From the IMG/VR virus record IMGVR_UViG_2711768071_000023: a stretch of DNA of 16,387 bases. The stretch is one strand, 5' to 3'. This document shows, one piece after another, positions 1 to 15,157 of the stretch (the first letter of the stretch is position 1; each line of letters opens with the position of its first letter). Under the pieces are notes generated by a model. It was not told the DNA's origin and did not search any database. It saw only the letters and a list, made by a program, of their open reading frames with translations. The translations under genes and the position numbers were made by a program. The DNA is from a virus (taxonomy: Duplodnaviria; Heunggongvirae; Uroviricota; Caudoviricetes).

Positions 1-1461
1 ATGAAAAAATTACTGCATCTTTTTTTCCCGCTCTCGCTGCGGGTACGTTTTCTGTTAGCAACGGCAGCAGTAGTATTGGTGCTTTCGCTTGCCTACGGAA
101 TGGTTGCGCTGATCGGTTATAGCGTCAGTTTCGATAAAACCACGTTTCGGCTGTTACGTGGCGAGAGCAATCTGTTCTATACCCTTGCGAAGTGGGAAAA
201 CAATAAGTTGCATGTCGAGTTACCCGAAAATATCGACAAGCAAAGCCCCACGATGACACTAATTTATGATGAGAACGGGCAGCTTTTATGGGCGCAACGT
301 GACGTGCCCTGGCTGATGAAGATGATCCAGCCTGACTGGCTGAAATCGAATGGTTTTCATGAAATTGAAGCGGATGTTAACGATACCAGCCTCTTGCTGA
401 GTGGAGATCATTCGATACAGCAACAGTTGCAGGAAGTGCGGGAAGATGATGACGACGCGGAGATGACCCACTCGGTGGCGGTAAACGTCTACCCGGCAAC
501 ATCGCGGATGCCAAAGTTAACCATTGTGGTGGTGGATACCATTCCGGTGGAGCTAAAAAGTTCCTATATGGTCTGGAGCTGGTTTATCTATGTGCTCTCA
601 GCCAATCTGCTGTTAGTGATCCCGCTGCTGTGGGTCGCCGCCTGGTGGAGTTTACGCCCCATCGAAGCCCTGGCAAAAGAAGTCCGCGAACTGGAAGAAC
701 ATAACCGTGAATTGCTCAATCCAGCCACAACGCGAGAACTGACCAGTCTGGTACGAAACCTGAACCGACTGTTAAAAAGTGAACGCGAACGTTACGACAA
801 ATATCGTACAACGCTCACCGACCTGACCCATAGTCTGAAAACGCCACTGGCGGTGCTGCAAAGTACGCTGCGTTCTCTGCGTAGTGAGAAGATGAGCGTC
901 AGTGATGCTGAGCCGGTAATGCTGGAGCAAATCAGCCGCATTTCACAGCAAATTGGCTACTACCTGCATCGTGCCAGTATGCGCGGCGGGACATTGCTTA
1001 GCCGCGAGCTGCATCCGGTCGCGCCACTGTTGGACAATCTCACCTCGGCGCTGAACAAAGTGTATCAACGCAAAGGGGTCAATATCTCTCTCGATATCTC
1101 GCCAGAAATCAGCTTTGTTGGTGAGCAGAACGATTTTGTCGAAGTGATGGGCAACGTGCTGGATAACGCCTGTAAATATTGCCTCGAGTTTGTCGAAATT
1201 TCTGCAAGGCAAACCGACGAGCATCTCTATATTGTGGTCGAGGATGATGGCCCCGGTATTCCATTAAGCAAGCGAGAGGTCATTTTCGACCGTGGTCAAC
1301 GGGTTGATACTTTACGCCCTGGGCAAGGTGTGGGGCTGGCGGTAGCCCGCGAAATCACCGAGCAATATGAGGGTAAAATCGTCGCCGGAGAGAGCATGCT
1401 GGGCGGTGCGCGGATGGAGGTGATTTTTGGTCGCCAGCATTCTGCGCCGAAAGATGAATAA
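1..1461 (+). CDS. phoQ: Sensor histidine kinase PhoQ (complete)
   Basis: 486-aa ORF, ATG at 1, TAA at 1459-1461. Translation shows an N-terminal TM segment, periplasmic sensor region, second TM, H-box ([13 protein letters not shown]) and HATPase motifs ([15 protein letters not shown]). Near-identical to enterobacterial PhoQ as I recall it. Confidence 0.95.
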
Positions 1462-1543
1462 ATATGTCCTTTTATCACCAAATTAAGATAAGGCATTGAT
1501 TTAATTAAATAATTTGCACTGCAAAAAGTGCCAAAAATCGCAA

Positions 1544-1567
1544 ATTAACTACACCATTAACTACACC
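1544..1567. repeat. Perfect tandem direct repeat ATTAACTACACC x2 in the phoQ-proximal junction
   Basis: Two adjacent identical 12-mers read directly from the sequence, followed at 1584-1600 by AACAA motifs spaced 10 bp apart. Confidence 0.6.
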
Positions 1568-1932
1568 GTTCGGTGCACTGTATGAAACAACGTGGAACAA
1601 ATAGACACAAGAAATATACAGGCGGGTCATCTTTCCAGGGGAAAGCACGCCAATTCATGAGGGGCGTTAATGTCGATATGGGGATCCCCATAACGGGGCT
1701 ACCTGGCTTTTTTTCCGGTTAAATGTCAATCAGGCTGGTGGGTTTTACATACCCTTGATCACCGTAATGATGATTCAGATCTGCACCTTTCCACCAATGG
1801 TGGAAAAGCCCACAGCAGGCCGCCCAGCCTCCCCCAATGGGGGATTGTGGAAGAATCAACGGGTTAGGCCTTAATCATCTGCGTAATCATAAGTAATCAT
1901 AATGTTCATTCATCCAGCGCAATTTTGCGTTA

Positions 1933-1956
1933 TCGGGAATATCAAACAGTTACCGC
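1933..1956. repeat. 24-bp direct repeat, copy 1 (TCGGGAATATCAAACAGTTACCGC)
   Basis: Matches 2077-2100 at 23 of 24 positions; lies in the non-coding junction 144 bp from copy 2. Confidence 0.7.
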
Positions 1957-2076
1957 GCCGACTTCCTCAAATTGAGGTTTCCGAAAATATCAGCGGGTTA
2001 GCGATTAAGCTGACCATTAATTAAACTGCGAAAATGTCGTAGTTGTGAGGGGTGTAGCCAACCCATTTTTGGACCG

Positions 2077-2100
2077 TCGGGAATATCAACCAGTTACCGC
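2077..2100. repeat. 24-bp direct repeat, copy 2 (TCGGGAATATCAACCAGTTACCGC), spans the stop codon of the terminal island gene
   Basis: One mismatch relative to 1933-1956; includes the TAA (2094-2096, minus strand) of the 97-aa ORF. Confidence 0.7.
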
Positions 2101-2387
2101 CGCAACCGCTCCGGCTTCTTCCAGTGGTAAGTAATTTTTTCTTTCTCCTGGAACATCTCCACGCGGCGACGATATGACAACAACTCCAGAACTCTGGTGC
2201 GTATATTGCGTATATCCACGCCGTTAAGCTCGATACCGTCACGGCGCATCACCTCAGCCACCACACGCGCGTAATTTTCGGCTATCACGCTGTCCGGCTG
2301 CGTGGCCTCCTGTTTGCCTGCTTCCTGGCTGATTCCGGTAACGCGGCGGATTATTTTTAGTAGTTCGGTTTCGCTCATTCTCGTCAT
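2094..2387 (-). CDS. Hypothetical small basic protein (97 aa), last gene of the packaging operon
   Basis: ATG at 2387 overlaps the terL stop as ATGA (translational coupling). Arg/Lys-rich C-terminus. No family recognised. Confidence 0.6.
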   Translation of the reverse strand: MTRMSETELLKIIRRVTGISQEAGKQEATQPDSVIAENYARVVAEVMRRDGIELNGVDIRNIRTRVLELLSYRRRVEMFQEKEKITYHWKKPERLRR

Positions 2388-4045
2388 ACCCCATCAAACG
2401 CCGCAAGCCGCTCTTTGTGGCTGTCGCTCATATCAAATGCAAATTCCTCATGCTCTGCCTGGAATGTGCCAAACGCCATCAGCGCCGCAACGCTCGGGTC
2501 TATCTTGTTGGATGATTTTTTCTTGTTCGGCTTGATATTGGCGTTCGCGTCACTCTGCATCACAACATTACTCATTGACCAGGCCAGCACCGGATCGCCA
2601 CGATGCACAATCACCTTCCGGTTAACAAAAACTTCGAACGATTTCGCCGCCGGACTGAAACGAAGGTATGTTTGCGGGAACGGCTCCACCTCAAATCCTG
2701 CCCCCTGTAGCTGCGTCCTCAGGTGCGTGGCGTTCCATGTATCGAAGCCCACCAGCCTGATATTGAAATTCTCTGCATCCGCCATGATGTCATCACGGAT
2801 ACGGTCATAATCAATGCAGTCACCCGGTGTTGTGCGTATCCAGCCCGCCTTTACCCACTGGCGATAGATGGCGCGGTTTTTATTGGCGGGGTTCTGTAGC
2901 TGAAATTCCGGCAGATAGTGACGGGAAACCAGCATAATCTTTTTACCGACCGGAAAGGCATAGCACACGCTGGAAATATCGCTGGTTGATGATAAGTCCA
3001 GCCCCGCGTAGCACTCCTGCCCGTATAAATCCGCCTCCGCGAACGTTCCGGCGCACTCCGCCCATGCACCGTTACCCATCCACGGCGTAGCCCCCTGACA
3101 CCAGATATTGAATCGCTTGGTGAGCATTTCCACCCACTGCGACGGAATACCCCGCGCTTTCTGGATGGTTGAGGCCAGTTTTTCACGATCGACGGAAACA
3201 TCGATATTGGGATTCGCCTTTATCCACATCGCCGGATCGTCAACCTCGCTTTCATCATCCAGCTCGTAAATCAGCACGAACATGGATTCGTTCACCTCTT
3301 CACCATCCAGTATCTGGCAGCAATAGTCATAGTGTTGTTTACAGGCTGAAACAACGTTGCTCCCCGATGTGGTGATGGCAAATAACAGCCCCTCCGGACG
3401 CGCCCCCATTCCCAGTTCAAGCGCGGAATAAACCCCGTTGTCAGGGTGCAGGTGATATTCATCCACAATGGCAAGACTCGGGTTTGTACCTTCAATGGTT
3501 GCCGCTTTTGCTGCCAGTGGCTTTAACAGGCTGTTGGTTTTCGGGTGTATCACCTTGTGTGCCTGAATATTTACCCGCTTTCGTAACGGTCGGGATAAAA
3601 GGCACATCTGACGCGCATCATCAAACACGATCCGCGCCTGATCACGACTCACGGCGGCGGTGTAAATATCCTGCTGCCCGTTTTCCATAACCAGAAACCA
3701 GTTAGCCAGGATAGCGGCGACCGTGGATTTGGCATTTTTTCGCGGCACTTCAATGAATGCGCTGGTGTATTTGCGCCGTCCGGTGGCCTTAACCTTAAAG
3801 CCCAGGATGCACGCAAAGGCGAACTGCTGCCACGGCTCCAGCTCAATGGGGCTACCGCGCATTGCGCCTTTTACGTGCGGACACACCCTGGAAAAGGCAA
3901 TAAACCGCTCCACGACCTCCGGATCGAACGTGTAAAGGGGGTTTTCAAGGTCAGAAAAATACCGTTTAACGGCCTGTTTCAGTCGTTTACAGGCCGTAAT
4001 TTTGCCGTTTTTTACGCCTTCTGCGTACTCATGCCAGGCGGTCAA
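2384..4045 (-). CDS. terL: Phage terminase large subunit (553 aa)
   Basis: Long ORF whose translation has terminase ATPase and nuclease domain character. Lies directly downstream of terS with a 17-nt overlap. The ORF-track start at 4045 is a TTG codon, so the exact start is uncertain. Confidence 0.88.
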   Translation of the reverse strand: MTAWHEYAEGVKNGKITACKRLKQAVKRYFSDLENPLYTFDPEVVERFIAFSRVCPHVKGAMRGSPIELEPWQQFAFACILGFKVKATGRRKYTSAFIEVPRKNAKSTVAAILANWFLVMENGQQDIYTAAVSRDQARIVFDDARQMCLLSRPLRKRVNIQAHKVIHPKTNSLLKPLAAKAATIEGTNPSLAIVDEYHLHPDNGVYSALELGMGARPEGLLFAITTSGSNVVSACKQHYDYCCQILDGEEVNESMFVLIYELDDESEVDDPAMWIKANPNIDVSVDREKLASTIQKARGIPSQWVEMLTKRFNIWCQGATPWMGNGAWAECAGTFAEADLYGQECYAGLDLSSTSDISSVCYAFPVGKKIMLVSRHYLPEFQLQNPANKNRAIYRQWVKAGWIRTTPGDCIDYDRIRDDIMADAENFNIRLVGFDTWNATHLRTQLQGAGFEVEPFPQTYLRFSPAAKSFEVFVNRKVIVHRGDPVLAWSMSNVVMQSDANANIKPNKKKSSNKIDPSVAALMAFGTFQAEHEEFAFDMSDSHKERLAAFDGV

Positions 4046-4385
4046 GCTCGTCCTCTTCCTCTGTTTCCGGTGGATTTCTGCGGCGACTTACCGGGTCAAA
4101 ACCCAGCAAAGAAGCCATTTTGATCATTATTCTTTCAGCGTCAGCCTTTGCGCTCAGGGCGGGGTTTCTGCTCTCGCTGCCCTGACTGTTAACAATGCTG
4201 AACCCGCGCGTGGCAAGGTCTTCGACGGCTTTGCGGTATATGGAGTAGTTAACACAATACAGCTCCAGATTGCTCCAGTCGGCGGGGGTAAGGTCTTCCC
4301 GTCCGGAAAGCTGGCGCGATTTTTCCTTCCACTGCCTGACCGCGATTTCATCCAGGTAAGCGGGGGCTTTTGGTGGTCTTGCCAT
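4029..4385 (-). CDS. terS: Phage terminase small subunit, P27 family (118 aa)
   Basis: Internal ATG at 4385 gives MARPPKAPAYLDE... with the conserved P27-family pattern (W..L...G.LT.AD...LE.YC..Y, C-terminal GF.P.SRRR). The 47 upstream codons of the track ORF look non-coding. Confidence 0.85.
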   Translation of the reverse strand: MARPPKAPAYLDEIAVRQWKEKSRQLSGREDLTPADWSNLELYCVNYSIYRKAVEDLATRGFSIVNSQGSESRNPALSAKADAERIMIKMASLLGFDPVSRRRNPPETEEEDELDRLA

Positions 4386-4673
4386 GTTCTTTTTTCGCCC
4401 AATTATTTTCAAAAAAATTCCCGTGCACAAAAATTTGAGGAGGCGGTCGGTGTCCGGCAGGGACGGTTTCGTCCTGAAAACCACCCCCACCCCCTCTGAC
4501 GGCCTCACCAGCGATTGCGAAAACATTCCATGACCTCGCGGTCACGGTCGGTTAATTGCTTCGCTGTGGTGCGTTCTGTGCGCCCTGTCCTGTTGGCTTT
4601 GTGCCCTGTCTCCTGTGTCTTCCATAAGTCACGCTGCCTTATCAGTCCACGTATCAGCCTGGTTTGCTCCTGT
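4386..4673. other. Candidate cos / terminase-recognition region between HNH and terS
   Basis: 288-bp gap in an otherwise overlapping operon. Contains a GC-rich run CCACCCCCACCCCC (4481-4494), short hairpin 4458-4476, and direct repeats TGTGCGCCCTGTC / TGTGCCCTGTC (4577-4589, 4600-4610). HNH-cos-terS is the usual arrangement in HK97-like cos phages. Confidence 0.35.
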
Positions 4674-5114
4674 TCAGTCATCATCGCCATACATCCAGTC
4701 GTTACGGTGTGCTGCCCGTTCTTCCTGCTCGCGATACATGCCCGCCTTACGGTTCGCTTTCGTGGCTGGATCTTCCCGTGTCGTCTTACGGTTGTGGCAC
4801 GTCTGGCACAATGCCTGGTGGTTCCACTCAGGCCAGAAGAGAACATCACCGCCGCCATTGATGGGGATGATGTGATCCACCACAAGAGCTGGCGTATAAA
4901 TCCCCTTAGCCAGACAACGCACGCATAACGGGTTTTTGCTCAGGTACAGGGCGCGGTATTTGTCCCACTGTCGGGAATACCCGCGCGCGCGGCGGTGTCC
5001 CCGTCTGGCATCCTCTGCACGCCATACAGCCCGTCTGTGCTCTTCACACTTGCCGGACTTCACGCGCTTATTACAGCCCGGCTCAGTGCATCGCCTTAAT
5101 GGTTGCCACGGCAT
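4674..5114 (-). CDS. HNH endonuclease, packaging-associated (146 aa)
   Basis: Cys-rich N-terminus (CTEPGCNKRVKSGKCEEH) and HNH core (VVDHIIPINGGGD ... NHQALCQTCHNRKT). ATG at 5114 overlaps the connector stop by 1 nt. Preceded by SD GGGGGTG. Confidence 0.85.
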   Translation of the reverse strand: MPWQPLRRCTEPGCNKRVKSGKCEEHRRAVWRAEDARRGHRRARGYSRQWDKYRALYLSKNPLCVRCLAKGIYTPALVVDHIIPINGGGDVLFWPEWNHQALCQTCHNRKTTREDPATKANRKAGMYREQEERAAHRNDWMYGDDD

Positions 5115-5416
5115 CAGTACACCCCCACATCACGATAAACCGACCAGAGCGCAGAAATAGCCATAGGCAGTTCAGACTGCTCCACTGGTGAAACTGCTTC
5201 CCTGTTCTCGTACAGGAAAGCGATGTACATCAGGCAACCAACACGCATTGCCGGGGTAAATTCCAGCCCGTCTTCAAAACGTTTCCCGATATGCTTCTGG
5301 CAGGCTTCCAGCGCCGCATCGGTATACATTTTCAGAAGTTCGCCTTCACCGGATAAATCATCATCAAGTCGAAGATGTGCCCTGACTTCATCAGGTGTAA
5401 TTCTGGCTTCACTCAT
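5114..5416 (-). CDS. gp6-like head-tail connector / DNA-packaging protein (100 aa)
   Basis: Internal ATG at 5416 with strong SD AAGGGAG. Small acidic protein with the pattern typical of gp6-like head-tail connectors. Overlaps the portal stop by 8 nt. Confidence 0.65.
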   Translation of the reverse strand: MSEARITPDEVRAHLRLDDDLSGEGELLKMYTDAALEACQKHIGKRFEDGLEFTPAMRVGCLMYIAFLYENREAVSPVEQSELPMAISALWSVYRDVGVY

Positions 5417-6623
5417 CTTTTCTCCCTTTAATTTCCACAGTCTGTTTCCATGCCTGGCTGAACTCATCACCACCTTCACGCGGCGGCATACCCTCGCGTT
5501 CGCGAGCTTCGTTCGGATTCATGATCCCGCTCTTAATCCCTTTCTCATACGTGGCATAACGTTCGGTGGGTGTGGCGCGCAGTAAATCGGCTGAATCAAA
5601 CTCAACCAGATAACGGGTACCAGGTACGGGAGAAGTCACCAGCAAAGCGGCCTTGATTTGCTGTTCGAAGTTCGCCAGCCACGGGCGCATTGTCATGGTC
5701 AGAAATGCGCGGCTCGCCTCACTGAAATTGCTGTAGGTGCTGTTGCTGTATTCCTGAAGAAAAATCGGCGACACGTTGAACATCCTGGCGATGTCTTCAA
5801 TGGAGAAGCGACGGGAGGCCAGCCATTCCGCATCCTGGTTACTCATCCCCAGCTGCCTGTAATCCATGCCCCCTTCAAGGATTGGCGTTTTTCCGGCATT
5901 TTTCGCCCCCTTGTAGCGTTCCAGTGCGTCTAATGCCTGTTTACCTTTCACGCCGTCCAGCCATTCACCTGACGTGATAATCCCTGCCGCCATCATGCCA
6001 TCTTTCATAATGCTGGCTCCGTGACGCTGTTGAGCAAGGCCAAGCCCCAGCGCCTCACGGCAAATCGTGACGGGGGAACGCCCCAGAAAGCCATCATCCG
6101 AGGCATAGCGGAGATGCAGAACTTCTTCCTGTAAATACGTGCGCACCGTTCCTGTACAGGGTTCGGTGATGGTATAGCGGTATTTGTGTGTGCCTGTGCG
6201 TTCCGGTACAACACACCCCGGCGCATAAGGATGAAGTGATTTTGGCTGCCCGTCCCGCCCCCACTCAATAACCGCATAGGCGTTACCGTTCAGCAGGCAG
6301 TGACGCATCATTGTGCGTTTAAACTGGTAAGGTGTCAGGCACGAATTAGGCTGCTCATTCAGCAGAATATCTACCGGGTGACTGTCCAGCCATTCCCGCG
6401 CCTCTCTGCCCTTATCATTGCGTACCAGATACAGGTAACACGGCATCGTGGCCACCGCCTCAGCGATGACAGAAACCGCGTTCATCACAGCAGGCAATGA
6501 TTCAGCCGTCCCGGCAGAAACATATTCTCCGGATCCGGTATTTGGTACACCAGACAACGCCAGAAAATCATCAATGGACAGGTTACGCAGATCGCTTTTT
6601 TTACGACTAAAAGGCCACCACAT
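5409..6623 (-). CDS. Phage portal protein, HK97-like (404 aa)
   Basis: Internal ATG at 6623 (MWWPFSRKKSDL...). Size and sequence character typical of HK97-family portals. Lies between protease and connector. Confidence 0.88.
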   Translation of the reverse strand: MWWPFSRKKSDLRNLSIDDFLALSGVPNTGSGEYVSAGTAESLPAVMNAVSVIAEAVATMPCYLYLVRNDKGREAREWLDSHPVDILLNEQPNSCLTPYQFKRTMMRHCLLNGNAYAVIEWGRDGQPKSLHPYAPGCVVPERTGTHKYRYTITEPCTGTVRTYLQEEVLHLRYASDDGFLGRSPVTICREALGLGLAQQRHGASIMKDGMMAAGIITSGEWLDGVKGKQALDALERYKGAKNAGKTPILEGGMDYRQLGMSNQDAEWLASRRFSIEDIARMFNVSPIFLQEYSNSTYSNFSEASRAFLTMTMRPWLANFEQQIKAALLVTSPVPGTRYLVEFDSADLLRATPTERYATYEKGIKSGIMNPNEAREREGMPPREGGDEFSQAWKQTVEIKGRKDE

Positions 6624-6624
6624 A

Positions 6625-7185
6625 TCACAACCCCGCCAGTTCAGCCCAGCGATGACGATTATTTCCTGCCGGGCGTAATTCAGGGTACTGTGCAAACAAC
6701 GAACGGTGGGCAATCTCCACGCCGGATTCGGGATAAGCAGGCATCGATGTTATCGTGATTTCACGGAGTTCTGCTGCGGTTACAGTACGCAGATACGGTT
6801 TTTGCGCGATATTCCACTCCTCGCATAATGCGCGAAAGCCAAAGCTCATTCCTGTAATATCGCCACGTTCCACCAGCGTAAGCACATCTTTTCCAAGCTG
6901 GGTATTTGGCGGTGTCAGTTCAAAACGTAGCCCGGTGTTATCCTCAGTCAGTACCAGTGAGCCGGATTTGGTACGCCCCAGCAGTTGGGTATAGTCATGC
7001 TCATACAGACAGCGCACATCATTACCTGCCGCCAGATAGTCAGCAAAAGCCCCCGGCGTGAACTGTTCGCGAAACTCGTCCCAGATAATTTCTGAAAGGC
7101 TGTTCCAGCGAACGGCATAACCCACCAGTTTTTTATCGCTGGCGGTCAGTTCAGATGTACGGATTTCAAAATCGGTGTTTTTCAT
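6625..7185 (-). CDS. Prohead protease, HK97 family (186 aa)
   Basis: Internal ATG at 7185 (MKNTDFEIRTSE...) with SD GGAG. Translation resembles HK97-type prohead proteases (GYAVRWN..., ...GMSFGF...). Stop lies immediately upstream of the portal start. Confidence 0.85.
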   Translation of the reverse strand: MKNTDFEIRTSELTASDKKLVGYAVRWNSLSEIIWDEFREQFTPGAFADYLAAGNDVRCLYEHDYTQLLGRTKSGSLVLTEDNTGLRFELTPPNTQLGKDVLTLVERGDITGMSFGFRALCEEWNIAQKPYLRTVTAAELREITITSMPAYPESGVEIAHRSLFAQYPELRPAGNNRHRWAELAGL

Positions 7186-7234
7186 CGGTGTACTCCATAA
7201 AGCTGAAAAAGGAGGCCGAAGCCCCCTTTGCTCA

Positions 7235-8380
7235 TTACTTGCCAGCCTGAATTTCCAGAATCTTGATGGCGTTCGAATCCACCACACCACCGCCCAGATA
7301 TTTCTGGGTATAGATGTTAATGAATCCAGGCTCGCTGAAATCCGGACGGGTACGCGTACCGGTTTTATGGTCAACGATGAAATAACCGCGCTTAAAGTCA
7401 CCGACTGCAATCACACCGTCCGGCATAAATTCCAGATATTCAACCGGAAGCCCCAGCAGAGAATCAGGATCACCAGCCTGTAAACGATCGCGCCAGATGT
7501 AATCACCAGTGGCATTTTTCAGTTTTTGTGCGGAGGCGGCTGTATTTGAGTTCATCACCCATACAGCTTTTTTGCGGTACTTATTGCGCAGCGTAAATTT
7601 CAGGTCAATCAGCATATCGGCGCTGAGACTGCCAGTCACTTTTTTCGTCTGGAGCGTACCGAAAGGACGGGTTTTGTCATTATCCGTAGTGCGCGGGAAA
7701 GTCAGGAAACCTTTGGCTTTTTTCTCGCCATCACCGGAAACCAGATCCGTTTCTTCGGTATCAACGAAAGTGTCGCCAATTTCAGAAGATAACCAGCCCA
7801 TAATATCGACTTCGGAAAAATCGATAATTTCCTGAGTGGTTTTCGGGTAAGCGTAGATCGGATACAGGCGGATACTGACTTCATTCAGTTTTGGGGTTGC
7901 CGTCTGGTTACGTGCCGCACCTTCTTCGCCGTGTCCCACGACCGCACCCCCGGCAGAAACCAGTTGCTTAAATTCATTACTGTGAATGGTTTTAACAGTA
8001 CAGATTTTACGCATCACCGACTCATCAGAAAGCTGACGCATAATTTCTCTGTTCAGTTCCGGGATAACCGTATAACCACCATCAGCCGGGACACTGCCGG
8101 ACAGGTTGCGGGTTTCCCCGGTCAGAATGTAAGAGCGTAGTTCGTCTTTGGTGATTTTCTCTTCGACGGAAACACCTGGCTGGTTACGTTCTTCATCCGC
8201 AACAGCTTCAAGACGGGAGATTTCTGTGTCGAGGGAATCGGCTTTTGCACGCAGTTCATCAAACTGTTTGCCTTCGTCATCGTTCAGGCTGCGGTTTTCA
8301 CTGTCGGCTTTTTCCAGCAGGGATCGCATCTGGTTTTTCAGGGCGGTTTTTTGCTGGCGGAGTTCGATTAATTTCTTCAT
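7235..8380 (-). CDS. Major capsid protein, HK97 fold with N-terminal delta domain (381 aa)
   Basis: ATG at 8380. First ~100 residues are a coiled-coil-like scaffold segment (LRQQKTALKNQMRSLLEKA... LDTEISRLEAV) followed by an HK97-type capsid body. Confidence 0.9.
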   Translation of the reverse strand: MKKLIELRQQKTALKNQMRSLLEKADSENRSLNDDEGKQFDELRAKADSLDTEISRLEAVADEERNQPGVSVEEKITKDELRSYILTGETRNLSGSVPADGGYTVIPELNREIMRQLSDESVMRKICTVKTIHSNEFKQLVSAGGAVVGHGEEGAARNQTATPKLNEVSIRLYPIYAYPKTTQEIIDFSEVDIMGWLSSEIGDTFVDTEETDLVSGDGEKKAKGFLTFPRTTDNDKTRPFGTLQTKKVTGSLSADMLIDLKFTLRNKYRKKAVWVMNSNTAASAQKLKNATGDYIWRDRLQAGDPDSLLGLPVEYLEFMPDGVIAVGDFKRGYFIVDHKTGTRTRPDFSEPGFINIYTQKYLGGGVVDSNAIKILEIQAGK

Positions 8381-8573
8381 GAAGGTTTTCTCGTATTGGT
8401 TAAGATTCAGGACGTGAAACCAACACGGAGGGAGCGCCGCCCGACACTCTCGGCATCTCGCAGATCAACCCGGCATCGCGCAGGGGGTCAGGCGGCATTG
8501 TGGCGGCTCACGTCTGAGTGCCACACGCCAACATATACATAAAAATCAGTATGTAAACATCAGCCAGAATCAC

Positions 8574-8602
8574 CGAACAACCTGGAACAACCACGAACAA
8601 AT
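8574..8602 (-). promoter_or_regulatory. Three 10-bp-phased TTGTTC repeats upstream of the capsid operon
   Basis: Plus strand reads cGAACAAcc tgGAACAAcc acGAACAAat, i.e. TTGTTC x3 on the coding (minus) strand at exact 10-bp spacing. Sits just downstream of the 8615-8644 terminator and about 190 bp upstream of the capsid ATG. Confidence 0.45.
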
Positions 8603-8614
8603 AATTTACAAAAC

Positions 8615-8644
8615 CTGAAAAAAGGCCCGGAAAAAATCCGGGCC
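8615..8644 (-). terminator. Intrinsic terminator after the replication/accessory operon
   Basis: Perfect 8-bp stem GGCCCGGA / TCCGGGCC (8624-8631, 8637-8644) with a 5-nt loop, followed on the minus strand by TTTTTTC. Lies 10 bp past the stop of the 8654-8902 ORF. Confidence 0.7.
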
Positions 8645-8653
8645 TTTATCGCT

Positions 8654-8902
8654 TTATTGTTTCACTGGCTCCCGCATTCTGCGTCTTATTTTCCACAAAT
8701 ATTCGATCATCGCTTCCACCTGCTCACGGTTGGTTGCGAAAATTTCCCCGGTCAGTGAGCTACGCAGAAAATCATGATGATCCACAAAAAATAACGCATC
8801 GGAAGAAAGCAACCGACGATATTTTTTTGCTGTCGTGGTTTCCAGATCATCAAAACCATGAAGCTTTTTATGTTGCTGAACTTCTTCAAATGTCACTGGC
8901 AT
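8654..8902 (-). CDS. Hypothetical protein (82 aa)
   Basis: ATG at 8902 with strong SD AAGGGGGAT. Overlaps the stop of the ProQ/FinO-like gene by 10 nt. No family recognised. Confidence 0.5.
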   Translation of the reverse strand: MPVTFEEVQQHKKLHGFDDLETTTAKKYRRLLSSDALFFVDHHDFLRSSLTGEIFATNREQVEAMIEYLWKIRRRMREPVKQ

Positions 8903-9423
8903 GTATCCCCCTTTGCTGCCCGGCGCTGGCGCTTGTGCTTCTCATTCAGCACCATCAGCCGTGTTTCTGCCTCCTGCTGTTCCTGTGGTGTCACTTCCCC
9001 ACATGGCTGGCCTTTCAGATCGTAACGTGCGCCACCAGCTATCAGGGCGCGGTAATAGCGCGGAGACTGCGCATAGGATGCCAGCGTCGCACGTAATACC
9101 CCCGGCCCGAATGCCAGCCCCCTGACGGCGATATCCTGCATCAGGTCGTCGAATATCCCCACCTTAAGCGGCTTCGGTGCTTTATGGCTGAATAAGTCAG
9201 GCCACATCTCAGTGAGGCGGTTAACGCGTCGGCGGTTTTTGCGCTGCCTTTTGGTCATATGCTGCCACGGTGTCGCCCCTGTGGGCTTCTGCTGTGCGTT
9301 CTGATTGCCGGGTATCACTTTATGCGCCGATGTGGTTTTATCCTGCTCTTGCGCCGCCTGCGTCGTTTTCTGCGGCGTGCCGTAAATGCCTTTCGGCTTC
9401 CGGTTAATGGTCAGCGTTGTCAT
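8893..9423 (-). CDS. ProQ/FinO-domain RNA-binding protein (176 aa)
   Basis: C-terminal two-thirds aligns by eye with the ProQ N-terminal FinO-like domain (PLKVGIFDDL ... LRATLASYAQSPRYYRALIAGGARYDLKGQPCGEVT vs ProQ PLKIGIFQDL ... [35 protein letters not shown]). SD GGGGAAGG precedes the ATG at 9423. Confidence 0.8.
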   Translation of the reverse strand: MTTLTINRKPKGIYGTPQKTTQAAQEQDKTTSAHKVIPGNQNAQQKPTGATPWQHMTKRQRKNRRRVNRLTEMWPDLFSHKAPKPLKVGIFDDLMQDIAVRGLAFGPGVLRATLASYAQSPRYYRALIAGGARYDLKGQPCGEVTPQEQQEAETRLMVLNEKHKRQRRAAKGDTCQ

Positions 9424-9459
9424 GCCTTCCCCTGTAATTACTCTGTTCGCTGTTGTGAA

Positions 9460-9885
9460 TTAAAACGGTATGTTATCCCCGTACGGGTCATCGTGCTGGC
9501 TTGTCTGTTGTTTTGCCCTGTTCAGTGCGTCAGTGGCCTGGCCCTGTTGACCTTTTTTGCCGCCCGGTCGCGCCGTTCGCGCACTGATTACGCTGTCTGC
9601 AATAACCTGCCAGCCCTGCCGCGTTTCCCCGTTCTGGCCTGTCCACTGGCTCACCTGCATGTTACCCGCCACGCTCACCAGTTCGCCTTTGTGGTGTTTT
9701 GCCAGTGCGTCGGCCTGTCTGCCAAACGCCAGGACAGATAACCACATCGTCGCCGTTCCGTCATCTGCCTGGCTGCACGGCAGGGGAACCGCCATACTCG
9801 CCATCGCCATTTGTGTCCCTTTGCTGGTGGTCTTTAACTGCGGGTCAGCCACCAGCCGCCCGTAAGCCGCTATCTGTGCTGTCAT
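9460..9885 (-). CDS. ssb: Single-stranded DNA-binding protein (141 aa)
   Basis: OB-fold pattern comparable to bacterial SSB (GRLVADPQLK..., WLSVLAFGRQADALAKHHKGELVSVAGNMQVSQWTGQNGETR) and an acidic C-terminal tip ...DDPYGDNIPF resembling the SSB DDDIPF tail. ATGA overlap with the upstream ORF. Confidence 0.75.
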   Translation of the reverse strand: MTAQIAAYGRLVADPQLKTTSKGTQMAMASMAVPLPCSQADDGTATMWLSVLAFGRQADALAKHHKGELVSVAGNMQVSQWTGQNGETRQGWQVIADSVISARTARPGGKKGQQGQATDALNRAKQQTSQHDDPYGDNIPF

Positions 9886-10127
9886 GCTGTCTGCTCTCCG
9901 GTTTTAACGTTGATGGTTGTCACCTGTTCCGCTTCGGCAATCTCCCGTTCTGTCAGCGTGGCAAAGTTTGCTGCCGCCGTGGTCATGAATGCGCTTATCA
10001 GTTCGGGATGTGCTTTTGCGTACCCTTCTCCCGCGTTGCGGTCGATGATTTTTATCGCCACCCTCAGCCAGTGTTCTGTCAAATCAAGGGCGTGAGATTG
10101 TGGTTTTTTTGCGTGCTTCGTTGTCAC
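9882..10127 (-). CDS. Hypothetical protein (81 aa), GTG start
   Basis: Track ORF starts at a GTG (10127) preceded by SD GAGGT. Translationally coupled to ssb. No family recognised. Confidence 0.45.
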   Translation of the reverse strand: MTTKHAKKPQSHALDLTEHWLRVAIKIIDRNAGEGYAKAHPELISAFMTTAAANFATLTEREIAEAEQVTTINVKTGEQTA

Positions 10128-10178
10128 AGGCTTTACCTCACAGCAATAAAATAAAATTTTTGCATTTTAACCCTTCAC

Positions 10179-10401
10179 CTGTTCACCTTTTGAGATTTTC
10201 CCTTTTTATTCATAATGTTAAGGGGTGAACAGTTTCACAAAAACTATTCACCAACTGTTCACCACTGTTCACCCTTAAAGCTCAATAAATAATCAAAAAG
10301 GTGAACAGTGAATAGTTTGGTGAACAGTTCACAAATAACTGTTCACCCTATAATGTACTGATATAAAAGATATTTATAACAGGGTGAACAGTGGTGAACA
10401 G
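10179..10401. repeat. Iteron cluster, candidate replication origin
   Basis: Nine perfect copies of GGTGAACAG in both orientations (GGTGAACAG at 10224, 10300, 10319, 10383, 10393; CTGTTCACC at 10179, 10255, 10265, 10339) plus degenerate copies, several pairs at 10-bp phasing. An AT-rich stretch (10350-10380) is embedded. Lies immediately 3' of the primase-helicase gene. Confidence 0.75.
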
Positions 10402-10414
10402 TTATTCCATAAGT

Positions 10415-12229
10415 TTAATTTTTGCTGTCGTCATTTGTGACCGATGCACATGATGGCATACAGTCTTCTGAATCCTCTGTCAGTGTCACATTTGAACGCA
10501 AACCGTGCTTCGTTTTCCGTTTTATATACTCCCTGCCATATTCCGCCATTGCCCCCGGCATATCTTTACCGAAGCGCGTCAGTGTTACAGGTTTACCGAA
10601 TCCGTGTGCCCTCATATATGCCAGATAGGCGTGATAAAGATACCTGCGCGGACTGAACGGAATAATTTCGGCATTACCCACTAACAGACCATCACACATT
10701 ACCGACGACATGAGATAGCCACAGAAGTCCACCAGCGAATCGCCCTCGCGTTTTATCACCAGAGCTTCTTCTGATTTCTGCTGCTCATACAGCAGGCGTT
10801 TAGCTTCGTCCTGGTCAGAAAAACGAGTAAGCAGATGGCGAATCACAACCGCCAGCTCTCCTTCTATTTTTTCTGCCAGCATGGGGTCGCGCTCGTTCTC
10901 CGGTACAACCTCCGAAAAATTGAATATCACCCGACGACGTGAGATCCCCCCGCTGCGGTCACTGAATGACATGGCGTTATTGTTCACCGCCAGCACGACC
11001 GCCTGAATGCGTGTTGAGTAGGGGGCTTTATGCTTCGGGTCGATTGCCACCTTGTCACCGCCTGTAATGGCCTTAATTCCTGCGCCATCACCAGCGTAGC
11101 GGGTCATATCCGGCATGATAATCAGCGAAAAGCCAACCACTAACGCGCGTTCCCTTGCATCTTCCAGCGCCTTCATGCTTGCCGATACTGTGTTGGCCTT
11201 ACCCGCCAGCATAGTGCAAATCTCCGCCATCACGCTTTTACCACTTCCCCCTGGACCTGTTACCTCAATGAATAACTGCCAGTCGTACCGGTTCGCCAGC
11301 ACCATGAATAATGCAGCCAGCACGCGATCCGTCTTGCGGTCATTCTCTGCCACCGAGCAGCGTAACCACTTCCAGAAATTCGGCGCATGTGTTGCCAGCG
11401 TTTCCCCCTCTGCTGGTGGGCTGAAAGGTAATTCACTGGCAATTAACAACCAGTCGTTTTTGTTATGCTCCCGAAAATTACCTGTTCTGGTATCAAATAC
11501 CCCGTTACTGAATCCAATCAGGTTACGGGCTGTATTCCCCATTACAGGCAAACTTAACTTCATGGTATCGACCGCCGATTTAATGGCGTTCTGCGAATAG
11601 CTGATCTCCGCATCAATGAAAATCTGCGCCATAGCACGCTGTAACTCTTTATCCTGAATCGGCTCCCATACAACGCCGTTGTAATGGTGAACAGTGTCAG
11701 AGTCGGCATGAATCGCCAGTTCACCGCCATAATGTGCCAGGAGAACTTCGCCGCGCTGGCTTGCTCCCATCTGGTTAAGCGCCAGTGGTGCGGCGCTGTC
11801 TTCTGTTTTTTTCTTAACAGGAAGCTGAATCACCAGACCATCAGAAAGATTCTGGCGCTCACGGGCCAGATATTCGCGCCAGTTCTGCACCTCCTGACCG
11901 TGCATACCCTCAGGATAAAAATTTGCATCCTGTACGCCTGCCGCCGCCAGCTTCTGACCAATCGCCTTTATCATTACTGGCGCAAGATATCCGGCCCTGA
12001 ATATGCGCACGGATTTTCTGCCTTCCGGCACAATTTGCAGCTTATCCAGTTCGGATAACTGCTGCTCCCCAAGCCACACAGGAGGCTCATTATCTCCGGC
12101 CATACGCGCGTCATGTTCCTGCCATTGTTTTGCGTGTGACCAGGCATCACTACCCGCAAAAATAATGACTTCTGTTTCTTTGTGTTTTATGCCGCGTGAC
12201 TGCTGTTTTACGTTCGGTGCCAGTTTCAT
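10415..12229 (-). CDS. Replication initiator primase-helicase, P4-alpha/D5-like (604 aa)
   Basis: Walker A motif GPGGSGKS and downstream helicase-like region in the C-terminal half. Strong SD AGGGGGT. Position next to the iteron origin matches a pri-rep gene. Confidence 0.85.
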   Translation of the reverse strand: MKLAPNVKQQSRGIKHKETEVIIFAGSDAWSHAKQWQEHDARMAGDNEPPVWLGEQQLSELDKLQIVPEGRKSVRIFRAGYLAPVMIKAIGQKLAAAGVQDANFYPEGMHGQEVQNWREYLARERQNLSDGLVIQLPVKKKTEDSAAPLALNQMGASQRGEVLLAHYGGELAIHADSDTVHHYNGVVWEPIQDKELQRAMAQIFIDAEISYSQNAIKSAVDTMKLSLPVMGNTARNLIGFSNGVFDTRTGNFREHNKNDWLLIASELPFSPPAEGETLATHAPNFWKWLRCSVAENDRKTDRVLAALFMVLANRYDWQLFIEVTGPGGSGKSVMAEICTMLAGKANTVSASMKALEDARERALVVGFSLIIMPDMTRYAGDGAGIKAITGGDKVAIDPKHKAPYSTRIQAVVLAVNNNAMSFSDRSGGISRRRVIFNFSEVVPENERDPMLAEKIEGELAVVIRHLLTRFSDQDEAKRLLYEQQKSEEALVIKREGDSLVDFCGYLMSSVMCDGLLVGNAEIIPFSPRRYLYHAYLAYMRAHGFGKPVTLTRFGKDMPGAMAEYGREYIKRKTKHGLRSNVTLTEDSEDCMPSCASVTNDDSKN

Positions 12230-12513
12230 TTTTTACCCCCTGCGACCAGCATTTCACGAATTTTGCGGATATGACTTGCTGCACGTTTCTGATTTACGGC
12301 TTTACGATGGCCCACCAGCGTGAAATCACGCCGGAACTGATAAACAGGCATCACGCAGTCATATTCGTAGCCATCACGGCGGTAAGTGATGCGCCGTTCT
12401 GCCACGCCTTTTATCGTTACCGTGCCGCCATAGTTATCCCGGAAAATATCGCCGGGGCGGATTTCAGGCCGAGCGGGGCCGCTGGCAGTAAAGCCAGAAT
12501 TTTTCTTTTTCAT
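12226..12513 (-). CDS. Hypothetical protein (95 aa)
   Basis: ATG at 12513. Stop overlaps the primase start as ATGA. No family recognised. Confidence 0.5.
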   Translation of the reverse strand: MKKKNSGFTASGPARPEIRPGDIFRDNYGGTVTIKGVAERRITYRRDGYEYDCVMPVYQFRRDFTLVGHRKAVNQKRAASHIRKIREMLVAGGKK

Positions 12514-12519
12514 GTTTTT

Positions 12520-12738
12520 TTACTCCAGAGGCAGCTTTTTAGCGGCGAGCTCAATATCAGATGTCAGAGAAACCTGTGTATTTGCCAGGTCTAACAACAA
12601 AGAAATAAGAATTTCTTCTCTGCTATCGGATTTATCGGTGCTAAGGCTGTTCATCCACATATTGACGACTTCCCTGATTTTTTTCGCAGAGTGCAGGGCT
12701 TCAAATGCCAGGTCTTCAATATCATGTTTATTTCGCAT
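12520..12738 (-). CDS. Hypothetical small acidic protein (72 aa)
   Basis: Internal ATG at 12738 with SD GGGGG. Overlaps the upstream gene stop by 11 nt. Confidence 0.45.
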   Translation of the reverse strand: MRNKHDIEDLAFEALHSAKKIREVVNMWMNSLSTDKSDSREEILISLLLDLANTQVSLTSDIELAAKKLPLE

Positions 12739-12940
12739 AATCGCCCCCGCGTAGCTGGTCTGCACTAACACCCGATTTAGTGAGCATTTCAGAAAATCCC
12801 GCAAGAGTGCTGATAAATTCGTTTTCCATTAAACGGCACTGACATTTAACCCGGCCTTTTTCCAGATACACCAGTACGCGCCCCGTATAATCTGACGGCA
12901 CATTCAGCACTACAGGTAAGTGCGATTCATGATTATGCAT
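12728..12940 (-). CDS. Small protein, paralog B of a tandem pair (70 aa)
   Basis: SD AGGGGGTGA. Shares a motif with the adjacent 69-aa protein (TGRVLVYLEKGRVKC vs TGQLLVNVDKGRVVC). Confidence 0.55.
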   Translation of the reverse strand: MHNHESHLPVVLNVPSDYTGRVLVYLEKGRVKCQCRLMENEFISTLAGFSEMLTKSGVSADQLRGGDYAK

Positions 12941-13142
12941 GTCTCACCCCCTGAATATTCGCATTAATCATTCCGGCACGTTCTGCGAGTTCCTGTAATG
13001 ATTCCCTTGTTGCGACAATGGCTTCATCTGGCAGGTGGTAATTACACACCACGCGACCTTTATCCACATTGACCAGTAGCTGCCCGGTAAATTTCTCACG
13101 AAACTGAACGCGGTTAAGGTCGGTAAGTGACAGGTTAATCAT
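12933..13142 (-). CDS. Small protein, paralog A of a tandem pair (69 aa)
   Basis: SD AGGGGG. Paralogous to 12728-12940. 8-nt overlaps on both sides. Confidence 0.55.
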   Translation of the reverse strand: MINLSLTDLNRVQFREKFTGQLLVNVDKGRVVCNYHLPDEAIVATRESLQELAERAGMINANIQGVRHA

Positions 13143-13338
13143 GGTGTTCCCCCTGGCGAATACGGGCAGCGAATACCATCACGCAGCCATCAGGAGATTG
13201 CTGACGCGCTTCCTGTTCGCTGGTGGCCTCAATGGTAATCACGCGCGGTTGTGCCGTGCTCAGGGCGATAAAACGCCAGATGTATTTATTCAGGTTGTGC
13301 GAGTCCCGCCCTTGCGGGTGTGTGGTATGATTTCTCAT
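13135..13338 (-). CDS. Icd-like small protein (67 aa), first gene of the leftward early operon
   Basis: In-frame ATG at 13338 with SD GAGGT inside the 473-codon track ORF. Translation MRNHTTHPQGR...VITIEATSEQEARQQSPDGCVMVFAARIRQ resembles the Icd-like proteins of P4-type prophages as I recall them. Family assignment is from memory only. Confidence 0.5.
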   Translation of the reverse strand: MRNHTTHPQGRDSHNLNKYIWRFIALSTAQPRVITIEATSEQEARQQSPDGCVMVFAARIRQGEHHD

Positions 13339-13446
13339 AGCTACCTCGATACTCTCGTTATCGTTGGTGGTTAGAAGCCCCGTTACTGCTCCAACAGTGC
13401 GGGGCTTCGTCGTTTCAATTGCTGAATTGCATGTATCAGCACTTGT

Positions 13447-13500
13447 GGTATTCACATTACATTTAGGTGAATACCATTTCAAGTCTTTTTTGGTATTCAC
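13447..13500. promoter_or_regulatory. Operator-like repeats in the divergent control region
   Basis: Perfect inverted repeat GGTATTCAC-N11-GTGAATACC (13447-13475) plus a third direct copy TGGTATTCAC (13491-13500). Lies between the minus-strand Icd-like start (13338) and the plus-strand regulator start (13544). Confidence 0.5.
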
Positions 13501-13543
13501 TTTTGTATTACACTGCATCCCGTTATTAATGGGAGGTGCAAAC

Positions 13544-13849
13544 ATGTCCAGGAGTTCTGTTAACAATAAGTCACAGCAACTGAATGCCAGATTTCCACAT
13601 GAAGTAGTGAGTGGCATTGAGGCATCCCTACAGCCAGGGGAAACTAAAGCGAATTTTATAGTTACGGCTGTACGCGGTGAGATCGCCCGGCGCCAGGCAG
13701 AAGGAAGTGGAGAAAATCCCCTGGTTTCTTCGCTCGATGCACTGGCGCAGGTGGAAAAACTCGGAATCAAAGCCGCCGAGGAGATCGGGCAGCTCGTCAC
13801 TGTCGCACGTGAAGAACTCCAGCGCCGCAAGACCAAAGAACCAGAGTAA
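13544..13849 (+). CDS. Ribbon-helix-helix (Arc/MetJ-type) DNA-binding protein, candidate island repressor (101 aa)
   Basis: ATG at 13544 preceded by GGGAGGTG at 5-nt spacing. N-terminus QQLNARFPHEVVSGIEAS...ANFIVTAVRGEIARRQ fits the RHH beta-strand plus two-helix pattern. One of only two credible plus-strand genes inside the element. Confidence 0.6.
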   Translation: MSRSSVNNKSQQLNARFPHEVVSGIEASLQPGETKANFIVTAVRGEIARRQAEGSGENPLVSSLDALAQVEKLGIKAAEEIGQLVTVAREELQRRKTKEPE

Positions 13850-13906
13850 TCACCATCAGCGCCGTGGTGTAAGGTATTACGGCGCATTGCTATGCAGGAC
13901 AACACA

Positions 13907-14080
13907 ATGACCGATAAAGAATTGACCAAAACATTATCACCGGCACGGAAAAGACGGCGCAGAAAGATAGAGCATGAATCAGAAAGATTCGCGCCATGTG
14001 CTTTTGCCCTTGAGCAATTCCTTAAAGAGTACAGGGAAAAGCGCTCATTGCAGGTATGGCAACGAACTGAACCAGACTGA
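13907..14080 (+). CDS. Possible small basic protein (57 aa)
   Basis: ATG at 13907 (MTDKELTK...) in the same transcriptional direction as the RHH gene. Weak SD. No family recognised. Confidence 0.3.
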   Translation: MTDKELTKTLSPARKRRRRKIEHESERFAPCAFALEQFLKEYREKRSLQVWQRTEPD

Positions 14081-14256
14081 TTGCATTGCCCACCAGCCGC
14101 AAATGTGGCATTGTTGGCAATGCTCATGCGTTGGGGATAACGTGTAGCTTGTGTCGAGGGGCCACCGTAGCGGGTGGCCTTTGTTTTGCCCGTTATTCGG
14201 CAATTGTGGCGCTTCTCCACATGGTTGATATAATCCCACTGCTCAGATTCATTTTT

Positions 14257-14556
14257 TGCGCAGTAGGTTAATTGTTCACAAAGGCGCTCCGGCAACGGGG
14301 CGCTTTTTGTTTTTATTAGTTTGTAGAAACCTGACTCAGAGATAATGCTCATATTCTGATTGCCGTCAGGGGTGTAAGTTAAATTTACTCCCTTTTTATC
14401 ATCAAACATCTGCAACGCTCTGGCGTTAACAATATTGGTTTCACTCCCGCCAGTAAGGCCGGAAATAACCGGAATAATTTCGGCAAAATTTTGCAGATTC
14501 TGTTTTTCAGGACGAACGAAGCCCCGCCCTTGTTCGGGAGAATATCCAGTATTCAT
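14257..14556 (-). other. Possible coding segment: N-terminal ~100 codons of the 473-codon ORF, 3' end unresolved
   Basis: ATG at 14556, 52 bp downstream of alpA. Residues ~60-90 (TPDGNQNMSIISESGFYKLIKTKSAP) resemble the core of Bro-N-type domains. The frame has no stop until 13135 and runs antisense through the RHH gene and the 14284-14314 terminator. Confidence 0.3.
14284..14314 (+). terminator. Intrinsic terminator on the plus strand
   Basis: Stem GCGCTCCG / CGGGGCGC (14284-14291, 14296-14303; 7 Watson-Crick pairs plus 1 GU) with GCAA tetraloop, followed by TTTTTGTTTTT (14304-14314). Confidence 0.6.
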
Positions 14557-14608
14557 GGTTAGATCTCTGTATTAGTGGATGGGTGGCGGCTGTGTGCCGC
14601 CAGCCTGA

Positions 14609-14797
14609 TTAGTGAACTGCCTCGCAGCTGTCCTTCCATGCCAGAACTTCGGATAAAGACCAGCCAACGGAACGACCGCCCAGCTTACGCCGTGATGGGA
14701 ATTGTCCGGCTTTTTCCAGGCGGTACCGACATGAGCGGCTCAGGCCTGTAAGTTGCTGACATTCTTTTTCACGTATAAAGCGATCTGTGCTTAACAC
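14609..14797 (-). CDS. alpA: AlpA-family transcriptional regulator (62 aa), GTG start
   Basis: Translation MLSTDRFIREKECQQLTGLSRSCRYRLEKAGQFPSRRKLGGRSVGWSLSEVLAWK matches the AlpA family HTH pattern. GTG start at 14797 preceded by AAGGGGGAA. Confidence 0.8.
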   Translation of the reverse strand: MLSTDRFIREKECQQLTGLSRSCRYRLEKAGQFPSRRKLGGRSVGWSLSEVLAWKDSCEAVH

Positions 14798-15070
14798 AAT
14801 TCCCCCTTTGTTGTTTCTTAAAGAGTCATTGGGTGGATTATTGGGTTGTGTCGGATTGTGTCAGGGTGTTTGTGGAATGGCAAACACTGGCGGCGGTCGT
14901 TTTACAGAAGCAGGGGGAATGAGAATAAAAACTCTTTTAATTCATTATGATGCAAAGGCATAAAATTTTACTTTTACGCCTTTTTTACATATTTTTAAGA
15001 GTGATTCGCCAGTGTATAAAAAAACAGTACACCTATAAAAATCAAATGGTTATTACGATGGCTGATTTTT

Positions 15071-15130: not shown

Positions 15131-15157
15131 CCGCATCCTGAAAAATCGCAAAAAAAA

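Follow-up and report, generated by a model that had tools for sequence, protein, structure and literature searches.

The DNA analysed here, hereafter the window, is a 16,387-nt stretch filed as IMG/VR virus record IMGVR_UViG_2711768071_000023 (Caudoviricetes), in which phoQ (window 1–1461) is followed by a satellite of ~15 kb with every gene on the − strand. Judged by its gene order, which matches that of the EcCIEDL933 type, the element is a capsid-forming satellite of the phage-inducible chromosomal island (PICI) type. A junction of ~632 bp, running from the phoQ stop codon (1459–1461) to the stop codon of a 97-codon gene (2094–2096), holds a cluster of palindromes. By sequence homology, palindromes 3 and 4 and two further dyads, at 1965–1977 and 2024–2044, are snippets of phage antirepressor-family genes, and the dyads within the source phage genes are selected, allele-specific elements. 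We tentatively read the palindromes of the satellite as operator modules captured at the DNA level, which may act as decoys or sensors of helper-phage regulators, and give this reading somewhat less than an even chance. The symmetric elements of the junction are as follows.

1631–1645: palindrome 1, CTTTCC-agg-GGAAAG (CTTTCCaggGGAAAG), read in the sequence.
1677–1692: palindrome 2, a perfect 16-bp palindrome TATGGGGATCCCCATA, read in the sequence.
1686–1698: inverted repeat CCCC-ataac-GGGG, read in the sequence.
1701–1719: degenerate hairpin ACCTGGCtttttttCCGGT, which holds the T7 run; relatives carry ACCGGAAtttttTTCCGGT.
1708–1714: T7 run.
1788–1806: palindrome 3, TTTCCACCA-a-TGGTGGAAA (TTTCCACCAaTGGTGGAAA), arms of 9 nt.
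1831–1843: palindrome 4, CCCCC-aat-GGGGG; in its extended form TCCCCCAATGGGGGA / TCCCCCAaTGGGGGA at 1830–1844, arms of 7 nt.
1965–1977: further dyad, CCTCAAATTGAGG / CCTCAAaTTGAGG, arms of 6 nt.

Counting perfect inverted repeats with arms of at least 6 nt and spacers of at most 5 nt, we found four in 1620–1860 against a mean of 0.48 in 2000 dinucleotide shuffles (P = 0.005 for a count of at least 4; P = 0.0015 for summed arm length). When 241-nt windows were slid over the 16.4 kb, the mean was 0.29, and a count of three or more was reached only inside the junction, which holds seven such repeats in total, CCTCAAATTGAGG at 1965–1977 among them. All junction dyads are symmetric to within 0–1 nt of the axis. 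No open reading frame (ORF) of at least 60 codons lies inside the junction; two of that length, 1296–1496 (−) and 2021–2242 (−), only clip its edges. An earlier note on this DNA had claimed four inverted repeats, a high palindrome density and the absence of such ORFs, and all three claims are borne out. Its coordinates were right for palindromes 1–3, but it had put CCCCC-aat-GGGGG at 1841–1853 and the T7 run at 1709–1715, and the positions listed above replace both. It had also considered that the interval might be conserved host intergenic DNA, and alignment to island-free strains shows otherwise. The phoQ end was matched by 5369 of 5426 complete E. coli genomes; because the island-free ones stop matching at window 1466–1469 and only 1051 of the 5426 (about a fifth) carry 1475–2093, the junction is island rather than host DNA. 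Junction sequence was found at several integration sites, beside at least three different packaging modules.

When the whole junction was searched against the phage collection, only 1785–1877 gave a match, and that match lay within antirepressor genes. Searching module by module, we assigned five stretches, all read on the + strand.

1651–1697 (+): KilA-N-type fragment, reading QFMRGVNVDMGIPIT; its dyad CGATATGGGGATCCCCATAaCG at 1674–1695 has its perfect core at 1677–1692, which is palindrome 2.
1779–1832 (+): Rha-type fragment, reading ICTFPPMVEKPTAGRPAS; its dyad TTTCCACCAaTGGTGGAAA at 1788–1806 is palindrome 3.
1830–1877 (+): Roi-type module 1, with 1831–1878 reading PPMGDCGRINGLGLNH; its dyad TCCCCCAaTGGGGGA is palindrome 4, with integration host factor (IHF) consensus AATCAACGGGTTA at 1854–1866.
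1959–2006 (+): Roi-type module 2, reading RLPQIEVSENISGLAI; dyad CCTCAAaTTGAGG at 1965–1977 and IHF box TATCAgCGGGTTA at 1988–2000.
2024–2044 (+): Pocitis76/ST65-type dyad AACTgCGAAAATgTCGTAGTT, degenerate here.

The Rha-type fragment gave the clearest identity: 1788–1825 and nt 127–164 of an intact E. coli Rha gene are 100% identical over 38 nt, beyond which the homology ceases in both directions, and the translated fragment shares 83% protein identity with residues 21–38 of Ant of Salmonella phage SSU5. Intact Rha genes carry a 21-bp dyad, TTTTCCACCAATGGTGGAAAA, and the Rha-type allele is without an IHF box in intact genes too. Roi-type module 1 matched the anti-repressor of phage phi330, at residues 44–59 by tblastn and at nt 141–176 by blastn, and a copy of this unit in another satellite end (locus L136) matched roi of Shiga toxin (Stx) phages and of HK629 at 90.6%. 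The dyad and flank of Roi-type module 2 were found in intact Roi-family alleles encoding LPQIEVSERINNLGF, a match also made by tblastn. The Pocitis-type dyad is perfect in three related loci (L003, L010 and L011); there, AAACTACGAAAATTTCGTAGTT is 100% identical over 24–26 nt (E 7e-4 to 8e-3) to nt ~152–176 of KilAC-domain antirepressor/Roi-like genes of Hafnia, Salmonella and Klebsiella phages. The KilAC gene concerned has an N-terminal domain other than those of the KilA-N, Rha and Roi families. Additionally, IHF consensus is enriched in the junction, with four of the six exact matches of the whole window falling within these 632 bp.

Palindrome 2 is probably a KilA-N-type fragment, and this is the weakest link of the assignments. 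Exact copies of its 18-mer lie in two related satellites, in non-coding DNA of a high-GC contig and within a KilA-N gene (L144, PF04383, 8e-24) that reads it as DMGIPIS; the window frame over palindrome 2 reads VDMGIPIT. In the flank, the similarity to the KilA-N gene is weak and extends over ~8 codons (QFMRGVNV vs QAFLAALSS).

A near copy of palindrome 2, CCGATATGGGAATCCCCATATCG, also occurs in Escherichia phage Over9000 (L226 1190–1450), flanked by two 27-nt direct repeats, next to GCGGGACA iterons and directly behind the helicase/primase gene; at E ~0.5 this match is not significant alone. We considered palindrome 2 as a host-factor site on the basis of its resemblance to origin-adjacent non-coding DNA of Dhillonvirus and to a Klebsiella phage and dropped the idea, as these matches were not significant (E 0.5–2). 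The primase of the satellite is unrelated to the Dhillonvirus helicase/primase.

The intact phage genes tell what these pieces are in their original setting. Roi/Rha-family genes (L146–L225, L138, L139 and L230) have a 13–21-bp allele-specific dyad at nt ~125–165, in a variable segment of the N-terminal domain. In a sample of 80 intact Roi-family genes from viral contigs, four wing alleles were each found with a dyad of their own: NPPMVV with CCCCCAATGGtGG, LPALQV with CCTGCATTGCAGG, HPQFEV with CCTCAATTTGAGG and LPQIEV with CCTCAAATTGAGG. Three of these (CCTGCATTGCAGG, CCTCAATTTGAGG and CCTCAAATTGAGG) are perfect 13-bp dyads and one has a single mismatch; all four stand at the same gene position, each followed at a constant offset by the IHF consensus AATCAATAACTTA. 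The roi gene of HK022, the allele on which experiments have been done, carries CTGCATTGCAG at nt 131–141 and AATCAATGATTTA at nt 153–165. Clerget and Boccard reportedly found, in 1996, that Roi of HK022 recognises a site inside the roi gene itself, in close linkage with a site for IHF. The rha genes of phi80 and P22 are related to roi, and their products are harmful in IHF mutants. In HK022 roi, a dyad is followed by IHF consensus at nt 131–165, and window 1830–1866 and 1965–2000 are homologues of that segment. Unlike the phage gene, the satellite modules stand alone in non-coding DNA without a roi gene, with several specificities side by side.

The same design recurred in KilA-N genes, which we examined in 41 distinct segments from diverse viral contigs (L231–L310). 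Perfect dyads with arms of 8–14 nt, centred on GGAATTCC or GGGATCCC, were present in 22 of the 41, and the arms differ between alleles. The intact dyads span 16–28 bp and lie at the G-I-P codon position, where the matching dyad of L144 encodes DMGIPIS. Both sides changed in 9 of 11 pairs, with 48 double-change cells against 11.1 in shuffles (0/500), and 90.7% of dyad cells were paired, compared with 28–50% when one arm was slid. The residues around G-I-P track the dyad, as in DMGIPIS, SLGIPRD, EVGIPTS and EAGIPAS. In these gene families the dyad keeps its place within the codons of the N-terminal DNA-binding domain and, though its sequence changes between alleles, its symmetry; it may be the protein's own operator. 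A literature search on embedded compensatory dyads in KilA-N genes found no description of them in the searchable literature.

The pieces kept by satellites correspond to this one segment. We aligned five full-length roi, rha and ant genes (~700 nt) with 29 satellite termini by blastn, and all matches were confined to at most ~60 nt around the dyad (nt 122–181, or nt 67–98 in the 5'-truncated SSU5 gene). A dyad census covered 30 satellite termini, which represent no fewer than four integration sites and three or more types of packaging module. The KilA-N type was found in 23, the Rha type in 14, the four Roi types in 12, 17, 2 and 2, and the Pocitis type in 13; termini carry from none to five of the seven dyad types in varied combinations, the window having five. 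At L136 (2495–2660), three tandem 54-nt units carry the dyads CCTCAAATTGAGG, CCCCCAATGGGGG and CCTGCATTGCAGG, each followed by IHF consensus; the phage allele matched by one unit (96%) is not the one matched by a second (90.6%). This non-coding end also has three Chi sites. Most IHF boxes keep all nine specified bases, with the four free bases varying. When divergence of the conserved block was compared with that at fourfold-degenerate terL sites, the pairs conflicted because of mosaicism.

No Rha, Roi or KilA-N protein is encoded among the genes of the satellite, and any binding protein would have to come from a phage. In the mechanism that we propose, a helper or competing lambdoid phage would express a Roi, Rha or KilA-N protein, which would bind the matching dyads of the satellite and, at the Roi-type modules, do so jointly with host IHF. 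In this way the array could serve as a multi-specificity decoy or sensor, either titrating phage regulators or reporting the presence of a phage to the attL-side end. Both the binding of protein in the satellite and its consequence are what we infer from the sequence. Titration clusters are known in datA, for DnaA, and in the incA iterons of P1. Like these, the junction would be a cluster of binding sites without a regulated gene, on a replicon able to amplify; datA and incA each capture a single protein, from their own replicon or host, whereas the satellite array would bind several proteins of foreign elements. The fuller proposition, that KilA-N, Rha and Roi regulators carry an allele-specific operator within the codons of their DNA-binding domain and that satellites collect ~50-bp pieces of these as an IHF-aided decoy or sensor for multiple helpers, is in our estimation unlikely on balance.

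Several observations weigh against the operator-module reading. The operator role within phage genes is drawn from covariation and one earlier paper. Palindrome 1 falls outside the antirepressor-snippet account. For palindrome 2, the KilA-N tblastn E values of 0.005–0.03 come from a tiny database and are driven by the dyad-dictated DMGIPIS, and by a rough estimate ~1–2 chance matches to its 18-mer are expected for a collection of this size. The exact Roi-1 allele of the satellite turned up in no Roi, Rha or KilA-N gene, and the IHF box TATCAgCGGGTTA of Roi-type module 2 is degenerate, with one mismatch (A to G). Every module is missing from some satellites. One-arm decay is seen in many satellite copies, including in the window the Pocitis-type dyad (2 mismatches) and the outer arm of the KilA-N-type dyad (ATAACG), and the tqsA lineage has a 7-nt deletion running through the KilA-N-type dyad. 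The literature view of the post-packaging region as variable likewise fits a gene graveyard.

These last points are shared with the main rival explanation, in which the palindromes are inert relics, i.e. scars in a recombination-prone variable end of antirepressor genes exchanged with lambdoid nin regions. To this we assign a chance that is substantial, if well below even. It would account for dyads decayed on one side, for indels running through dyads and for the variable presence of modules throughout, in a region that the literature calls variable. The same modules do occur in a lambdoid prophage (L015), in the nin region upstream of Q and beside a KilA-N pseudogene, and the 3' end of the neighbouring gene is partially duplicated within the junction as well. 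However, random decay should leave any part of a ~700-nt gene, and only the ~60 nt around the dyad were kept across the five genes and 29 termini. Nor would relics be expected to form tandem 54-nt units whose different dyads match different phage alleles. The majority of dyads have stayed perfect, and the nine specified bases are intact in most IHF boxes; in the Roi-1 dyad, it is the sampled phage roi allele that has a mismatch and the satellite copy that has none.

Alternatively, the junction might act as RNA. Read-through of the late operon would give a 3' untranslated region complementary to hairpin segments of phage antirepressor mRNA, with a ProQ/FinO-family protein aiding the pairing; FinO helps FinP pair with traJ. 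All snippets do run antisense to the operon of the satellite, and with respect to the 97-codon gene their orientation is constant, in the satellites as in prophage L015; no convincing terminator follows that gene. The satellite encodes a ProQ/FinO-family protein (~8893–9423, −), and the predicted fold of the − strand is somewhat more stable than those of shuffles (z = −2.14, with −0.07 for the + strand). Nevertheless, we consider an antisense array improbable. The axis symmetry leaves loops of 1–4 nt, which are poor for loop–loop kissing, and points to DNA recognition rather than to an RNA stem, because an RNA hairpin does not need such symmetry. An RNA role also leaves the retention of IHF consensus unaccounted for. 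An Rfam search of the junction, at gathering score and at E ≤ 10, found nothing beyond noise, and the variants alter one arm at a time and so break pairs, with no G-U pattern on either strand. The ProQ/FinO-family gene adjoins the gene for the single-stranded DNA-binding protein (SSB), the annotation being taken from a 99.8%-identical record.

The actual attachment (att) apparatus lies to the left of the palindromes and consists of the following elements.

1460–1469: att core AAATATGTCC of the attL junction, overlapping the last two bases of the phoQ stop; island DNA begins at 1470.
1489–1501 (−): IHF consensus AATCAATGCCTTA (WATCAANNNNTTR) in the P' arm, kept in all relatives despite differing flanks.
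1544–1567 (+): integrase arm-type direct repeats, two copies of ATTAACTACACC.
1584–1610 (+): three GnAnCAA repeats (GAAACAA, GGAACAA and GACACAA) in 10-bp phase, read from the sequence.

A 99.8%-identical chromosome (L001) places the element between phoQ and roxA, and there the core 10-mer AAATATGTCC recurs beyond int, next to roxA; the search past the window end for a shared core, suggested by the earlier note, thus found it at both junctions. A 26-nt exact copy of the arm repeats lies just upstream of int in L001, so that arm-type repeats are present in both arms and, like the core, lie entirely outside 1620–1860. Elements of the tqsA type have ATGACTACACCAGTGACTACACC in place of ATTAACTACACC; the arm repeats are specific to the integrase type. 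The GnAnCAA repeats are part of a ~86-nt imperfect direct repeat common to the P and P' arms. In 22 of 25 relatives they hardly change, and across these 25 no other part of the junction varies less than this stretch. They are candidate sites for an excision factor of the AlpA/Xis type or further Int sites.

The layout at 1460–1610 resembles a lambda-type attP in its core at both junctions, repeats in both arms, IHF consensus and phased direct repeats. It differs from the palindromes, which are independent of integrase type, in that the att elements of the satellite are direct repeats outside the palindrome interval. An extended attP, in which the palindromes and IHF sites form accessory architecture of the integration/excision complex, would fit the direct adjacency of the palindromes to the P' arm and the enrichment of IHF consensus, and yet we hold it very improbable. 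The palindromes begin ~160 bp from the core, past the arm-type and phased repeats. Across the satellites they do not co-vary with integrase or att type at a fixed distance from the core, and single dyads are deleted in otherwise intact satellites. Since the same dyads occur with other arms, cores and integration sites (tqsA, the clpS side and the yejO side) and in other orders, as in L014, and also in the prophage nin region, they are not att arms. The earlier note's suggestion of att arms and Xis-type sites therefore fails for the palindromes; its broader idea of protein-binding, IHF-type sites pointed in the right direction, given the IHF matches and axis-symmetric dyads of the junction.

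The palindromes, the T run, a 46-codon ORF (1582–1722) and a weak promoter-like match starting at 1744 might point to a structured small RNA, a terminator, a small protein, a cos site or an origin of replication; in view of the Rfam, terminator, ORF, cos and origin results, we find this group of readings scarcely credible. For the small RNA proposed in the earlier note, the Rfam search, the folding z-scores and the one-arm variants given above lend no support. No terminator was called at the palindromes on either strand, the T7 run lying in a hairpin loop or 9 nt after CCCCataacGGGG, and a promoter/terminator scan gave no excess over shuffles and none at the palindromes. The 46-codon ORF, which covers palindromes 1 and 2, meets TAA after codon 15 in four relatives (L003, L004, L011 and L012) and frameshifting indels in others, and has no Pfam or PHROG match. 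Local alignment to a lambda-like cos gave best scores of 20–25, within the shuffle range (mean 21.7, 95th percentile 26). An 11-nt likeness of 1640–1650 to the P2/P4 cos end was dropped, as relatives differ there and five delete the segment. As to an iteron origin, the junction dyads are all mutually different, and the true iteron origin lies at 10170–10410. The small RNAs of enterohaemorrhagic E. coli islands (Esr41 and the Pas RNAs) are unrelated and are encoded in other elements.

Palindrome 1 stands apart from the other elements. It sits in a 24-nt indel, the segment being absent from L009, L011, L071, L102 and L106, and it is imperfect in most relatives, which makes it dispensable; it had no match in the phage collection.

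The rest of the element follows the plan of its type. After the junction come the 97-codon gene, TerL, TerS, HNH, a head-tail connector, portal, prohead protease, major capsid protein, the ProQ/FinO-family protein, SSB and primase (10415–12229), then small regulators and, at the far end, a tyrosine integrase (15158–16387). EcCIEDL933-type capsid-forming PICIs have the same order of int, alpA-side regulators, primase, capsid, protease, portal, HNH, TerS and TerL, the same ~15 kb size, a dedicated att site and a variable region after the packaging module. In the literature on capsid-forming PICIs, the region after the packaging operon is variable and expected to hold immune genes. No non-coding operator snippets are described there, whereas the corresponding region of the window has no gene. 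Just downstream of the primase gene, the iteron replication origin at 10170–10410 has ~11 copies of GGTGAACAG(T) in both orientations. Additional features near the junction are listed below.

1734–1741 (+): Chi site GCTGGTGG.
1883–1902: perfect tandem duplication, two copies of GTAATCATAA, between a Roi-type module and the duplicated gene end.
1914–1956: repeated 3' end and flanking DNA of the 97-codon gene; contains hairpin CGCAatttTGCG and, at 1940–1952, IHF consensus TATCAAACAGTTA.
2058–2096: DNA flanking the 97-codon gene on its 3' side; contains hairpin CCCAtttttGG and, overlapping the stop codon, IHF consensus TATCAACCAGTTA (2084–2096).
2094–2387 (−): 97-codon gene, phrog_1561, of unknown function.

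In most related satellites, across three packaging-module types, the 97-codon gene directly precedes the non-coding end; it had no tblastn match in the phage collection. We rejected it as the binding partner of the palindromes, as it has no Pfam, NCBIfam or PDB relative and is unrelated to HK629 gp57. Its end is duplicated by direct repeat D2, in which 1914–1949 pairs with 2058–2093 as a partial copy of the gene's 3' end and flank 144 bp downstream; in many genomes, 1914–1956 also finds matches at the 3' ends of ~93-aa homologues of the gene. Chi (GCTGGTGG) is present in 12 copies at 1734–15503, all within the satellite, against 0.53 expected, and in 27 of 30 related satellite ends, where the + strand has 33 copies and the − strand 4. 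This excess suggests selection for protection from RecBCD.

If the snippets are inert, the palindromes are still explained, as inherited gene fragments, and the real attP of the satellite is mapped. The compensatory dyads within KilA-N and Rha/Roi coding sequence suggest a general self-operator design in a very large family of phage regulators. If that reading is true, a single piece of ~50 bp would transfer specificity along with its target. How Gram-negative PICIs sense their helpers is poorly known, and in a 2018 PICI paper the phage-encoded inducer was still under study. An operator-like array, if our reading of the junction is right, would be a concrete point of contact between satellite and phage.

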